A stretch of 64,000 bases of DNA from Gammaproteobacteria bacterium (GTDB lineage: Bacteria > Pseudomonadota > Gammaproteobacteria > Pseudomonadales > Pseudohongiellaceae), in contig JAVJRC010000004.1 of NCBI GenBank assembly GCA_040218615.1, forward strand, positions 77,659 through 141,658. Reading direction: 5' to 3'. Both the position numbers and the translations under genes were made by a program. Of the stretch, positions 34,924 to 39,681 are shown one piece after another (within the stretch, counting starts at the first letter, position 1; each line of letters opens with the position of its first letter). The notes below the pieces were generated by a model that saw only the letters and a list, made by a program, of their open reading frames with translations, ran no database searches and was not told where the DNA came from.

Positions 34924-35000
34924 TGGTGTCCCCGGGCCGATTTGAACGGCCGACCTAGCGCTTAGGAGGCGCTTGCTCTATCCAGCTGAGCTACGGGGAC
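34924..35000 (-). tRNA. tRNA-Arg (anticodon CCU)
   Basis: The minus strand reads GTCCCCGTAGCTCAGCTGGATAGAGCAAGCGCCTCCTAAGCGCTAGGTCGGCCGTTCAAATCGGCCCGGGGACACCA. Cloverleaf with 7 bp acceptor stem, CT-CCT-AA anticodon loop, TTCAAAT T-loop and encoded CCA. Confidence 0.93.
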
Positions 35001-35076
35001 ACGGGGCGCAAGTATATACTGTGGTCACTTTCACGACGAGAACCTGCCCTGCCCAGTCTTGTGCCCGGACAAAATC

Positions 35077-35781
35077 ATGCTCAGCGTTGTATTGCCCACC
35101 TTTAATGAAAGCCGTTGTGACTGTCTGCAGGAGATCCTGCGCAATCTTCAACAGCTCGTTCAGGACAGCGACGCCCAGGTAATTATTGTGGACGGCAGCA
35201 GCACTGATTCCACCCTGGACCAGATTGCCCAACATCAATTTGAGCCACTGACCGAAGCTGGCTCTTCGCGGGCTGCCCGACTCAATCGCGGTCTCGAGGC
35301 AAGCACGGGTGAGCTGGTGTTACTGCATCACCCACGCAGTGTTGTGGAGCTGCCAACCCTGCTCAGCCTGGAATCCATGGCCGCCAGCCACGAGGCTGAC
35401 TGGGGAAGTCTCACTCATCGGTTTGACCTGGACCACCCCCTGCTGAGATTTACTTCCTGGTACTCAAACAGGATTCGTGGCGATCTCCGTGGCATTTTCT
35501 ATCTCGATCATTGTATTTTTCTGCATCGAAGATTGATCGATCAGGGTATTCGGGTCCCGGAAGTGCCCATCTTTGAAGACACCAGGTTGTCACGGTTGTT
35601 ACGTAAACATGCAAAGCCGGTGCGCCTGCAGCAGCCATCGACGACTTCCGCGATTCGTTTTCAGCGTAATGGCATTTATCGCCAGGCTTTGCTGAACCAG
35701 CTGGTTAAAGTTGCGCACATGCTGAGAGTGCCGACACAAACAATTAATCGACTGTATGAGAAAGGCTTAAACCTGAATTGA
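35077..35781 (+). CDS. Family 2 glycosyltransferase of the rSAM/arsenosugar-associated type
   Basis: MLSVVLPTFNES...VIIVDGSSTDST N-terminus, then FEDTRLSRLL and TSAIRFQRNG in the C-terminal half. From memory this resembles the TIGR04283 family. Convergent with arsS. Confidence 0.65.
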   Translation: MLSVVLPTFNESRCDCLQEILRNLQQLVQDSDAQVIIVDGSSTDSTLDQIAQHQFEPLTEAGSSRAARLNRGLEASTGELVLLHHPRSVVELPTLLSLESMAASHEADWGSLTHRFDLDHPLLRFTSWYSNRIRGDLRGIFYLDHCIFLHRRLIDQGIRVPEVPIFEDTRLSRLLRKHAKPVRLQQPSTTSAIRFQRNGIYRQALLNQLVKVAHMLRVPTQTINRLYEKGLNLN

Positions 35782-35803
35782 CGAACGAAACGCGGAGCGA
35801 AGG

Positions 35804-36772
35804 CTAGGACGAACAGCTACCGCCACCCAGTACGCAAAATTTTGCACAGTGAGGGTGATTCAGTTTTACGCTTTGCCATGATTGCTTGAGCGAGGTTCCC
35901 AAGTTAAAGCGCTGGTCATAGGGCAGCAAGGTACAGGCTTGCACCGACAGATGGTCGTCACCCTTGTGCTTAACCACCATGCGCGAGCTTGCACACATGA
36001 TATCGGCTGGATCTACCTTGAGAATCCCCCAGCAAGCCGTGGTGATTTCTGGCACATCCACCGAGTCATCCATCTCGGGGAAGAGCACCAACTCCTCCGG
36101 ATTGTTTGCATCCAGGCTGATATTTTCCCGGGCAAACATGTCCCCGTAACCGGTGCGCATACTGGCCTCGTCTTCTTCCCACATGGTGCGCCCGGCTACC
36201 GCAAAATCGATATCGGATCCACTCAACCACTGTAGTGATTCAATGGCGGGCTTCCAGGATCGCTTGCCACGCTCCAGTGCATGGGTTTCTTCAAGGTAGT
36301 GATCCAGTGAAATACGCAATCGCAGCAGACCGGGAAAGGCTGCCCTCAGTCGTTCCAGTTTGTCGCGTTCGCGCAGCAGCGTCTTCATGCCATTGGTCAG
36401 TATCAGGGTTTTAAAACCACCGCGGAGACAGAGCTCGATAATGGCAACCATGTCCGGATTGAGAAATGGCTCGCCCCCGGTGAAGGCGATTTCCTCGGTA
36501 CCGAATTTCTCGGCTACGATTTCGTCGATTAACTGCTGCACTTCGTCAGCAGTAATATAGACAAGCCGGTCATTGGTAGGACTGGATTCTATATAACAGT
36601 TCTCACAGGTGAGATTACAGAGGCTGCCGGTATTGATCCAAAGAGTCTTGAGCCGGCGCGGATCTACGCTGGCACGGACTTCTCCATCCAGGGTGCGATC
36701 AGGATCGACAAACTTGCCCTGGCTGCGCGCCGAACTGTCGGTGATGTCCTGAATATTCAGTTTTTCATTCAT
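35804..36772 (-). CDS. arsS: Arsenosugar-biosynthesis-type radical SAM protein ArsS
   Basis: 322 aa with CNLTCENCY (CxxxCxxC) rSAM cluster and Cys-rich C-terminus HCAKFCVLGGGSCSS. Immediately downstream of arsM. Confidence 0.78.
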   Translation of the reverse strand: MNEKLNIQDITDSSARSQGKFVDPDRTLDGEVRASVDPRRLKTLWINTGSLCNLTCENCYIESSPTNDRLVYITADEVQQLIDEIVAEKFGTEEIAFTGGEPFLNPDMVAIIELCLRGGFKTLILTNGMKTLLRERDKLERLRAAFPGLLRLRISLDHYLEETHALERGKRSWKPAIESLQWLSGSDIDFAVAGRTMWEEDEASMRTGYGDMFARENISLDANNPEELVLFPEMDDSVDVPEITTACWGILKVDPADIMCASSRMVVKHKGDDHLSVQACTLLPYDQRFNLGTSLKQSWQSVKLNHPHCAKFCVLGGGSCSS

Positions 36773-36800
36773 GGGTAGTGCCGATTACCACTGTCGGGCT

Positions 36801-37874
36801 CTAACAGCAGGATGACGACCCTGAAGATCGATCGGCATCAGCCTGCTGCTGGTAAGGCATGTCTGTTCCACAGTCGGGAAAGATGCCGTAGTGGGTGGAA
36901 AAGTCGCCATAAAACTCAAAATATTGCTCAAAGCGAGTGTTCTGCAACATCATCAGGGTATTGCCACAGACAGGTGTGATCCTGCCTTTCTCGAACAGGT
37001 GGTGGTCATCCAGCTGGAAGAAATTCTCCTGCTCCTCTACTCCGCCCAGATACTTGATTGCCTGACCATAATCCTCACAAGCAGGTTCCAGCTCAGGCAG
37101 TTTGAAGAGCCGATAGGTGACGGAATAGAACTGATAAGCTTCCAGCCTGGCGGCCAGGGCGTCATTTTCAACACTGATACCATGGGATTCCACGATTCGT
37201 GGATCGTTGAAACCGCACTCTTTGGCCAGGTTTTGAAAATCATTCCAGTACAACGCGCCTCCAAGGCATTCGCCGTAGAGTTCCCGATCCTGGGCCAGCT
37301 CCGGCGGCAGACGGCGATTACAATACACATCGGAAAAATAGAATTCACCGCCCTCTTTCAACACCCTGAATGCTTCAGCCAATACAGCACGCTTGTCAGT
37401 GGCCAGGTTGACAACACAATTGGAAACGATGACATCGAACTGCGCGGATTCTATTCCTGCAGCACCCAGATCCTGAATATTGCCTTTCACGAACCTGACA
37501 TTGGCCTGACTGAATCCGAATTTTTCCCGATGCCACTCCACATGCCGGTTGGCAATTTCCAGTTGCTCATCGGTCATGTCAATTCCGGTAACGGAGCCTT
37601 CTTCACCCACCAGTTGCGACAGGAGATAACAATCGCGCCCGGTGCCACTGCCCAAATCCAGCACATCAAGCCCTTGTATCGAGGTTGGAATAGTCAGGCC
37701 ACAGCCGTAATAACGGGTTAGCACTTCTTCGTGGATATTGGCCAGCGCCTGCTTGATGCTTTGTGGATACTGGACTACCGTGCAGCAGACATTGGTTTTC
37801 AGATCCTCGCTACTTTGCAATTCCTTGCCATAGTAGTCACGCACCTCTGCTTCCACCTTGCTCATCTCATTCAT
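36801..37874 (-). CDS. arsM: Arsenite S-adenosylmethionine methyltransferase ArsM-like
   Basis: 357 aa with VLDLGSGTGRD SAM motif. Cysteines sit at the ArsM-typical places (NVCCT, YYGCG, SNCVVNL, GECLGG). Confidence 0.78.
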   Translation of the reverse strand: MNEMSKVEAEVRDYYGKELQSSEDLKTNVCCTVVQYPQSIKQALANIHEEVLTRYYGCGLTIPTSIQGLDVLDLGSGTGRDCYLLSQLVGEEGSVTGIDMTDEQLEIANRHVEWHREKFGFSQANVRFVKGNIQDLGAAGIESAQFDVIVSNCVVNLATDKRAVLAEAFRVLKEGGEFYFSDVYCNRRLPPELAQDRELYGECLGGALYWNDFQNLAKECGFNDPRIVESHGISVENDALAARLEAYQFYSVTYRLFKLPELEPACEDYGQAIKYLGGVEEQENFFQLDDHHLFEKGRITPVCGNTLMMLQNTRFEQYFEFYGDFSTHYGIFPDCGTDMPYQQQADADRSSGSSSCC

Positions 37875-38148
37875 TGCTGTTTCCTGTTCCTGCTCCCGCT
37901 TTCGCGCCTATGTTCTCATGCCTCGTTCCCGGGCGCACTTCAGAGGCTGCCAGGGACCCACAATTCCGAGTCTCGTCCCTCAGTAGACCCCAATACGGCA
38001 GATTTCCTTCAACGGCAATTTTCCGTGCCGGTTCCCAGACCTGCCCTACTCAACCAAGGCTACGGTTTAAGGTTATACTGGAGCAGGCAGGTACTGGCGG
38101 TTGATCCAACAACCCGCAGGATGCCAGTGGCGCTATTCCTTACTCGAT

Positions 38149-39681
38149 ATGACTGAAAACACCGAAACACTACTCGCACAGCTACAGCAAGCGAAGCAAC
38201 AGCTCGAGGCTGGAGATTCCGCTGGAGCCACCTCTCTCTACACCGAAGTCGCCCAGCAGGCAGGAGATGACCTGCTGGTCAATCTGCACCTGGCACAGCT
38301 TTGTACCGCCATGGGTAACGCCAGCGCCGCTGAATCGCATCTGCAAACAATCATTGCGCAGGAAACAGATGACCTGGAACTGCTCGTTACAGCTGCAAAA
38401 TGCCTGGGTGAAATTAACCTGCACGACAAGGGCATAAGCCTGGCAAGAAGAGCTGTTGCCATTGATCCGGAAAATCCCGACGCACTTTCAGCGCTGGGTA
38501 GCCTGCTGGTGGAAGCCGGAAAGACTGAAGAAGCCCAGGATCATCTTTTGCACATGATAGAAAAGCGCAAGAACCTGCGACTGGCATATACCAATCTGGC
38601 CCGCCTGAGAAAATTCACCTCCGAAGACAGCACCCTGATCGATCAGGCGGAAGCTGTCATTGCTGATGGCCTGCCTGCCCGGGAGCAACTGGCAGTCAAC
38701 TTTGCCCTGGGAAAGATCTACGATGATTGCCGTGAGTTCCACAAGGCATTTCCCCATTTCCAGCAAGCCAACGAACTGCAAAAAGAAGCCCATGACCACA
38801 ACAACGATTTAAACTGGTTTAAACAGATCAACACTGTTTTTACCGAAGGCACGATCGGCCGCCTTAGCGAAGGTGGCCACCAGTCCAGCCAACCGGTCTT
38901 TATCGTCGGCATGCCCCGCTCGGGCACCACACTTATGGAGCGGATAATCGCCAGTCATTCCCAGGGGGCAGGCGCTGGGGAATTGTTGGCAATGCCACGA
39001 ATTGCCCATCAAATCATGCGGGAGAATGAGGTTAGGCCAGCAGAGCGAGCACAACGGAGAATGACGCCTGATCTCATGGCAGGTTACAGCAATTACTATT
39101 TGCAAACCCTGCGACTCGGGCAGCCACCGGCACAACGTATCGTCGACAAGCTGCCAGGCAATTACCAGAACCTGGGTTTGATTCACGCACTGTTTCCCAA
39201 TGCCTCAATTGTTCATGCAGTCCGTCATCCACTGGATACCTGCCTGTCTTGCTATTTTCAGGCCTTCGCCGAAGTCCGTTGGTCCAACGACCTGAAAACC
39301 ATTGCTGACACCTATAAGCTCTACCGGGAATATATGAAGTATTGGCAAAAAGTCCTGCCTCGCGGCAAGATTCTGGAGGTTCAGTATGAGGCGCTGGTCG
39401 AAAACCCGACCGAAGAAGGGCAGCGCATGTTGAACCATTGCGGCTTGAGCTGGGAAGCAGAAAGCCTGGAATATCACCAACAACAGGCAGTGGTGAGAAC
39501 CGTAAGTCATGCCCAGGTCCGACAACCCATTTACCAAACTTCCAGAAAGCGCTGGATGAATTATGCCAAGCATATCCAGCCGCTGGTCGATGAACTCACT
39601 GAGTATCTGAAAGAAGACCAGGCAATGCTGGAAGAGAATGGCCTCAAGCTAAAAAAGAAGAAGCGATTCGGTCTTTTCTGA
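38149..39681 (+). CDS. TPR-repeat sulfotransferase family protein
   Basis: N-terminal half is TPR-like helical repeats. C-terminal half has FIVGMPRSGTTL (PAPS 5'-phosphosulfate-binding loop) and VRHPLDTCLSCY. ATG at 38149. Confidence 0.75.
   Translation: MTENTETLLAQLQQAKQQLEAGDSAGATSLYTEVAQQAGDDLLVNLHLAQLCTAMGNASAAESHLQTIIAQETDDLELLVTAAKCLGEINLHDKGISLARRAVAIDPENPDALSALGSLLVEAGKTEEAQDHLLHMIEKRKNLRLAYTNLARLRKFTSEDSTLIDQAEAVIADGLPAREQLAVNFALGKIYDDCREFHKAFPHFQQANELQKEAHDHNNDLNWFKQINTVFTEGTIGRLSEGGHQSSQPVFIVGMPRSGTTLMERIIASHSQGAGAGELLAMPRIAHQIMRENEVRPAERAQRRMTPDLMAGYSNYYLQTLRLGQPPAQRIVDKLPGNYQNLGLIHALFPNASIVHAVRHPLDTCLSCYFQAFAEVRWSNDLKTIADTYKLYREYMKYWQKVLPRGKILEVQYEALVENPTEEGQRMLNHCGLSWEAESLEYHQQQAVVRTVSHAQVRQPIYQTSRKRWMNYAKHIQPLVDELTEYLKEDQAMLEENGLKLKKKKRFGLF

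Follow-up and report, generated by a model that had tools for sequence, protein, structure and literature searches.

We analyzed a stretch of 64,000 nucleotides, referred to here as the window, from the genome of a gammaproteobacterium of the family Pseudohongiellaceae (contig JAVJRC010000004.1, positions 77,659 to 141,658). Our interest lies in three neighboring genes within it, namely arsM, which codes for a predicted As(III) S-adenosylmethionine (SAM) methyltransferase, a gene for a radical SAM enzyme (rSAM) of an unnamed family that we call c0, and a gene for a small family 2 glycosyltransferase (GT). A first-pass annotation had read this trio as ArsM, the rSAM ArsS and a transferase of arsenosugar-type biosynthesis. 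The open reading frames are exactly as it had described them, with arsM and the rSAM gene co-oriented and the GT gene convergent (Table 1). The trio does represent a recurrent arrangement with a real ArsM; any organoarsenical synthesis, however, would proceed through an rSAM that is not orthologous to ArsS.

Table 1. Features at the locus, with positions and strands as read in the window.
Feature	Positions	Strand	Remarks
arsM, predicted As(III) S-adenosylmethionine methyltransferase of the long type with three domains (357 amino acids)	36801-37874	-	
Radical SAM gene, unnamed family c0, 322 amino acids	35804-36772	-	CxxxCxxC and six-Cys C-terminal domain
GT2 gene, TIGR04283-like, HHPRS subfamily	35077-35781	+	ATG start; alternative TTG upstream at 35059
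tRNA-Arg(CCT)	34924-35000	-	Directly upstream of GT gene
Tetratricopeptide repeat (TPR) protein with short sulfotransferase-like match (NoeE, residues 264-287)	38101-39681	+	Divergent from arsM

Pfam places a class I SAM-binding domain (Methyltransf_31, 115.7 bits) at residues 68–219 of the methyltransferase. Comparison with solved structures gives full-length alignments to the algal ArsMs, with 5evj from Chlamydomonas reinhardtii matching at E = 3e-98 over residues 5–352 and CmArsM from Cyanidioschyzon (4fr0/4fs8) at E = 3e-92 (the 4fr0 match spans residues 7–333), and the SAM-binding motif is kept. ArsMs have four conserved cysteines, which in CmArsM numbering we take to be C44, C72, C174 and C224. 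The contexts VCC, YGCG, SNCV and GECLGGA of the window protein align with the cysteines of the crystallized ArsMs; C29/C30, C57, C153 and C203 fall opposite cysteines of 4kw7, the only structure to show all four, and 5evj has cysteines opposite C57 and C153 and an alanine opposite C203, as in an engineered variant. The SAM motif and the four cysteines that had been read from the sequence at first pass were thus borne out.

Among the NCBIfam hidden Markov models (HMMs), the top matches are all ArsM types and all stay under their cut-offs (PRK11873, 176.4 bits against 263; NF040538, 153.9 against 500; NF038099, 90 against 400), the arsinothricin ArsM ranking second. The ArsM within a canonical ArsM-ArsS-TIGR04283-TIGR04282 operon of another genome of the class (G009) shows a nearly identical score profile, also below the cut-offs, which indicates that the shortfall reflects the coverage of the NCBIfam models and not a different function. 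The window ArsM is 55–57% identical to ArsMs linked to ArsS (the set from G009, G090, G229 and G148), has the same HMM profile and falls in the same clade. It differs from the algal enzymes in its bacterial host, in a Ser/Cys-rich tail (SSGSSSCC) at its end and in scoring under the cut-offs of NCBI's ArsM models. These comparisons identify the methyltransferase as a bona fide full-length ArsM homologue, for which methylation of As(III) itself is predicted by homology.

The rSAM encoded next to arsM is another matter. On the ArsS model TIGR04167, c0 reaches 58 bits against a cut-off of 300, and this over profile positions 4–144 only, that is, the N-terminal core, whereas full-length true ArsS proteins of the same class score 390–477 bits. 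Pfam recognizes Radical_SAM and Fer4_12 alone in c0, with no match to DUF3641. As had been noted at first pass, the protein does carry a CxxxCxxC motif (C52-x3-C56-x2-C59, invariant in the family) and a Cys-rich C-terminus, in the cysteine and not the selenocysteine (Sec) version: six C-terminal cysteines (C247, C260, C280, C309, C313 and C320) are invariant in the family, the domain that holds them ends in HCAKFCVLGGGSCS, and the open reading frame requires neither an in-frame stop nor a Sec codon. Together with core motifs common to both families (such as TGGEPFLNP and TGGAPELNP) and with tails that look alike (HCAKFCVLGGGSC in c0 and HCYGCTAGQGSSC in ArsS, in an H-C..C..G-G-S-C pattern), these features could be taken to make c0 an ordinary, merely divergent member of TIGR04167. 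We find that view barely credible, and it is already contradicted by the low score, by the lack of DUF3641 and by direct comparison of the two families. In a profile-profile alignment of the c0 family with true ArsS, only residues 38–189 are aligned, at 24% identity, and the C-terminal halves alone give an hhalign probability of 0.3%; we treat the likeness of the tails as a short motif resemblance only. In a maximum-likelihood tree with a single outgroup, ArsS (support 100/99) and c0 with the c0-like proteins (96/91) form separate clades with very long branches between them, and a position outside the ArsS clade is what the first-pass annotation had itself named as refuting its assignment.

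The best-scoring named family for c0 is Rv1681 (MoeX; NF049973), with 95.5 bits against a cut-off of 380 and a match to the N-terminal core only (profile positions 72–216 of 326); distant c0-like proteins have the same top-scoring family (97 bits), and we know of no function for it. The AlphaFold model of c0 (mean pLDDT 72) is poorly determined at the cluster loop and at the C-terminal tail, and Foldseek retrieves for it only generic twitch/SPASM-type rSAMs (such as SkfB, BlsE, MoaA and anSME, TM ~0.5), matches that carry no functional information. By sequence criteria, c0 is not ArsS, but a separate rSAM family that shares with it the rSAM core only.

The GT had been described as being of the TIGR04283-like type, and TIGR04283 is by far its best family: although it scores 135 bits against a cut-off of 182, the alignment runs from end to end (profile positions 1–221 of 221), and the next family reaches 37 bits. 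Canonical TIGR04283 proteins carry LHAD[ST], the equivalent of the DXD motif of GT-A enzymes, and TGDQ, whereas the window GT has HHPRS and YLDHC. The window GT matched 125 clusters at E 1e-30 or better when 1.84 billion representative proteins were searched; of 126 full-length relatives, approximately 110 have an HPR-type motif (61 of them exactly HHPRS) and 101 have YLDHC. The window GT belongs to a subfamily, TIGR04283-like, whose members have HHPRS where HAD[ST] stood. TIGR04282 (DUF2064) is absent genome-wide in all four HHPRS-type genomes examined (the window's, G301, G302 and G307) and present in two genomes with a HADS-type GT (G311 and G337), a small sample that suggests a variant late pathway without the putative nucleotidyl-transferase-like TIGR04282 partner.

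The distribution of these families was scored in 300 genomes of the same class, 299 of which entered the cross-count of GT and ArsS, and in a second sample of 50 genomes picked solely for carrying c0. In the cross-count, ArsS-positive denotes a match at E ≤ 1e-40 (144 genomes) and a TIGR04283(-like) GT a match at E 1e-25 or better. Genomes within the samples are related to one another, and the counts that follow are therefore descriptive and overstate independence, a caution that itself counts against the interpretation we draw from them. Canonical ArsS is above its cut-off in 142 of the 300 own-class genomes, so that the locus is not remarkable for lying outside the cyanobacteria, as had been supposed at first. 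A TIGR04283(-like) GT accompanies ArsS almost without fail, being present in 143 of the 144 ArsS-positive genomes versus 17 of the 155 ArsS-negative ones. Among the c0 genomes, none of the 50 has ArsS, and 46 have the GT (34 of these above the curated cut-off). A c0-like gene was found in none of 17 control genomes that lack both ArsS and the GT. Twelve genomes (G014, G017, G081, G111, G126, G135, G147, G203, G216, G286, G291 and G295) have a TIGR04283(-like) match without ArsS or a c0-like gene; some of these matches are weak and some of the genomes fragmented, and in others of the twelve a partner enzyme of a third kind may have gone unnoticed.

Gene order shows the same exchange. Canonical operons of the class read ArsM-ArsS-TIGR04283-TIGR04282 (G009, G090 and G229; G148 has the same genes in a different order), and the ArsM-c0-GT order of the window mirrors their first three genes. 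One example of ArsS-ArsM adjacency rests on G141, which, like G296 and G039, is an unpublished genome. A long ArsM (E < 1e-100) is present in 20 genomes of the class sample, 15 of which have ArsS; in one of these 15, G296, c0 is also present, and there arsM adjoins c0 while the TIGR04283 gene adjoins ArsS. In four ArsS-negative genomes (G098, G144, G210 and G233), the gene immediately downstream of the intact long ArsM gene, on the same strand, is a distant c0-like one. The c0-like protein of G233 is 37% identical to window c0 over its full length, the Cys-rich domain included, and its gene is the fourth of an operon, after those for a TIGR04282-like protein, a TIGR04283-like protein and ArsM, in that order, and before that for a fusion protein containing a flavin adenine dinucleotide (FAD) disulfide reductase. 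Every intact long ArsM in the class sample is accompanied by ArsS or by c0(-like). An ArsM gene, where there is one, tends to lie next to the rSAM gene; six genomes of the c0 sample have one, and in five of these it lies within about 4 kb of c0.

Two genomes of the class sample stand apart. Only in G296 (C39:22661-24811 and C47), among the genomes sampled, do ArsS and c0 occur together, and G185, the remaining one of the 20 with a long ArsM, has neither; its ArsM gene (C42:64432-65487) contains an internal TAA and looks like a decaying orphan.

The c0 family comprises thousands of database proteins labelled only "radical SAM protein", and our full-text literature searches, run on an incomplete collection, found no paper on it. 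It has relatives in 596 or more species genomes; Alphaproteobacteria make up most of these, and Pseudohongiella, Aliidiomarina, Latescibacterota and SAR324 are represented as well. In the window's own class the family is rare, being present at E 1e-60 or better in two of the 300 sampled genomes besides the window's. We compared the neighborhoods of 80 c0 loci, with a flank of up to 7 kb on each side. In a recurrent minority of them c0 has one or more of the following as neighbors: an ArsM of the window type, TIGR04283-like GTs (two kinds), TIGR04282-like proteins, a Metallophos_2 phosphoesterase, a MerA-like FAD disulfide reductase and an MTAP phosphorylase. Both ArsM and the GT adjoin c0 in the window and in two further loci (L005 and L012); a GT of the window clade follows the rSAM gene in L005, L006 and L012, and L007 has none within 7 kb of that gene.

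The MTAP genes beside c0 deserve attention, since phosphorolysis of a 5'-substituted adenosine would amount to the adenine removal needed for arsenosugars. The MerA-like enzyme, an FAD pyridine-nucleotide-disulfide oxidoreductase, recurs in operons of arsM with c0 or c0-like genes (L111–L113, from G233, G144 and G210, as well as L015, L017 and L018), in G233 within the fusion protein, which has 744 amino acids, and may supply reductant or keep the arsenical trivalent. Metallophos_2 is fused to c0 in many proteins of 600–650 amino acids, which account for nearly all of the 120 listed from 650 longer matches, and its gene adjoins c0 in 9 of the 80 loci (c4 cluster, for example L025:8446-9384, minus strand); no fusion of c0 to ArsM is present among the 120 listed proteins.

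Based on this phyletic substitution and on gene order, we propose, with a probability of roughly 60%, that c0 takes over the function of ArsS in an arsenosugar-type pathway to organoarsenicals. ArsS adenosylates the trivalent dimethyl-arsenic DMAs(III) to 5'-deoxy-5'-dimethylarsinoyl-adenosine (DDMAA) in a redox-neutral reaction (PMC13598754), and acts together with ArsM in Synechocystis (PMC8552651; preprint 10.1101/2024.02.01.577332). The window system resembles the canonical one (SsArsM/SsArsS of Synechocystis; TIGR04167 with TIGR04283 and TIGR04282) in combining ArsM, an rSAM and a TIGR04283-type GT in the gammaproteobacterial order, with an ArsM of the same clade and an rSAM composed of a MoaA/twitch-like core and a Cys-rich C-terminus. 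It differs from it in the family and clade of the rSAM and its lack of DUF3641, in a GT with HHPRS for HAD[ST] whose gene is convergent rather than co-directional, and in the absence of TIGR04282 from the whole genome.

In the pathway that we envisage, arsenate would be reduced elsewhere, a gene for a glutaredoxin-type ArsC being located on contig 6, and ArsM would methylate As(III) to trivalent methyl- or dimethyl-arsenic, as its close homology to characterized ArsMs predicts. The [4Fe-4S]/SAM site of c0 would then serve to attach a 5'-deoxyadenosyl group to the arsenic, in the way that ArsS makes DDMAA, and the C-terminal domains of both enzymes probably bind the substrate. The subsequent steps are speculative: adenine could plausibly be removed by an MTAP-like phosphorylase, for which contig 6 has a gene whose product scores just under the cut-off (257 against 275 bits), and the HHPRS-type transferase might attach the arseno-ribosyl unit to an acceptor without a TIGR04282 partner. 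The chemistry of c0 and the end product are inferred.

Several observations weigh against this proposal. An ArsM-like gene is missing in 44 of the 50 c0 genomes, and any such gene is found in only 24 of the 144 ArsS genomes (~83% are without); the core pathway therefore needs no in-house ArsM. Hosts of this kind may take up arsenic that is already methylated in their environment, or work on a different substrate, and the rSAM/GT core pathway might not be about arsenic at all. In the 80 loci, most c0 genes lie in variable housekeeping contexts (for example zwf-pgl-pgi, folE, apaG and trkH), and the commonest physical or fusion partner of c0, the Metallophos_2 phosphoesterase, is absent from the window genome. 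The solved relatives of c0 are only of generic twitch/SPASM-type rSAM fold, and its C-terminal domain has no relation to the one in ArsS, so that identical chemistry cannot be taken for granted. The GT lacks the Asp of the DXD-equivalent motif; in addition, no match to TIGR04282 was found in the window genome, which is 99.8% complete, so that the late steps must differ from those of the canonical set.

Beside the view of c0 as a divergent ArsS, two further explanations draw on the same observations. c0 could act on the arsenical made by ArsM through a chemistry unlike that of ArsS, either the transfer of another SAM fragment, as by ArsL, or a later radical step, and the product would be an undescribed organoarsenical. 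The unrelated C-terminal domain would fit such a scheme, as would the divergent GT subfamily, the missing TIGR04282 and the second rank of the arsinothricin ArsM among the HMMs for the window ArsM, and ArsL shows that rSAM enzymes can form other As–C bonds. ArsL, which transfers the ACP group, has 428 amino acids with its CX3CX2C motif at 194–201 and is encoded in an arsQML operon (PMC8552651). The arsinothricin pathway of Burkholderia gladioli (arsQML) resembles the window locus in pairing ArsM with an As–C-forming rSAM, but its rSAM has a different architecture, as c0 is 322 amino acids long with the motif at 52–59, and the 25 best matches of c0 include no family named for ArsL. The window locus has neither an ArsQ-type permease gene nor the context of an arsenic-inducible ars operon, and the partners of c0 belong to the partner families of ArsS (TIGR04283, TIGR04282-like and MTAP), of which MTAP fits a 5'-substituted adenosine. 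We consider a different chemistry unlikely.

A departure from arsenic altogether would go further. The core of rSAM and TIGR04283, whether built with ArsS or c0, might normally handle another metalloid, a chalcogen or an ordinary metabolite, with the ArsM-type methyltransferase as an occasional accessory, an explanation that draws on the scarcity of ArsM-like genes in both samples (6 of 50 c0 and 24 of 144 ArsS genomes), on the housekeeping neighbors of most c0 genes and on the lack of an arsenite efflux system in the window genome. Yet ArsS is experimentally an arsenic enzyme, c0 follows at 28 nucleotides an ArsM in which none of the four As(III)-binding cysteines is missing, and an intact long ArsM always occurs in the sample with ArsS or c0(-like), while the genomes that lack ArsM could draw methylated arsenic from their surroundings. 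On balance, a core devoted to a substrate other than arsenic seems to us distinctly improbable, and the substitution of c0 for ArsS is the reading that we retain.

With regard to the surroundings of the trio, arsM and the c0 gene downstream of it are separated by a spacer of 28 nucleotides and are probably co-transcribed, and the convergent GT gene lies 22 nucleotides from the rSAM stop codon. The G+C content of the trio (0.51–0.53) is like that of the neighborhood, and in a metagenome-assembled genome of Pseudohongiella (L005) the trio lies, at 74–77% protein identity, beside the same syntenic flank of a small open reading frame, ygfZ and nadB. A recent island insertion at the tRNA was considered and rejected, given the unremarkable G+C content and the shared flank, which implies that any insertion at the tRNA is not recent. 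A link of the trio to the divergent TPR/sulfotransferase genes, from position 38101 onward, is likewise not supported, as neither the syntenic L005 nor any other c0 locus contains them. A scan for RNA elements or a riboswitch around the operon gave the tRNA only, and scans of the locus for promoters and terminators gave sites no commoner than in shuffled sequence. In agreement with the initial observation that no arsR, arsB or acr3 gene is nearby, ACR3 is absent from the genome, a single, weak ArsB-family match falls on contig 6, and the ArsR-type HTH_5 genes are all on contigs other than that of the window.

If c0 does substitute for ArsS, it may do so along a route of its own. We regard as conceivable, if rather doubtful, that c0 and the HHPRS transferase constitute a distinct, TIGR04282-independent pathway, in which c0 would form the As–C bond by means of a domain unrelated to that of ArsS, and the transferase, in which Arg stands where the metal-binding Asp would be, would take as its donor a sugar-1-phosphate from the MTAP reaction instead of a nucleotide-activated one, giving a product unlike the cyanobacterial arsenosugars. 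Were this so, much of the arsenic cycling by marine and soil proteobacteria would run through enzymes that current arsenic-gene surveys miss.

In marine food webs, organic arsenic occurs chiefly as arsenosugars and arsenolipids, and to our knowledge only the first two enzymes of their biosynthesis, ArsM and ArsS, have been defined. The trio offers a handle on the late steps, through the link to MTAP and a transferase that would work without TIGR04282, and is small enough to be cloned whole, which would let two different substrate-binding domains be compared for the same C–As chemistry. A second, partly unrelated rSAM family in the position of ArsS would mean that surveys based on ArsS under-count the producers of organoarsenicals.

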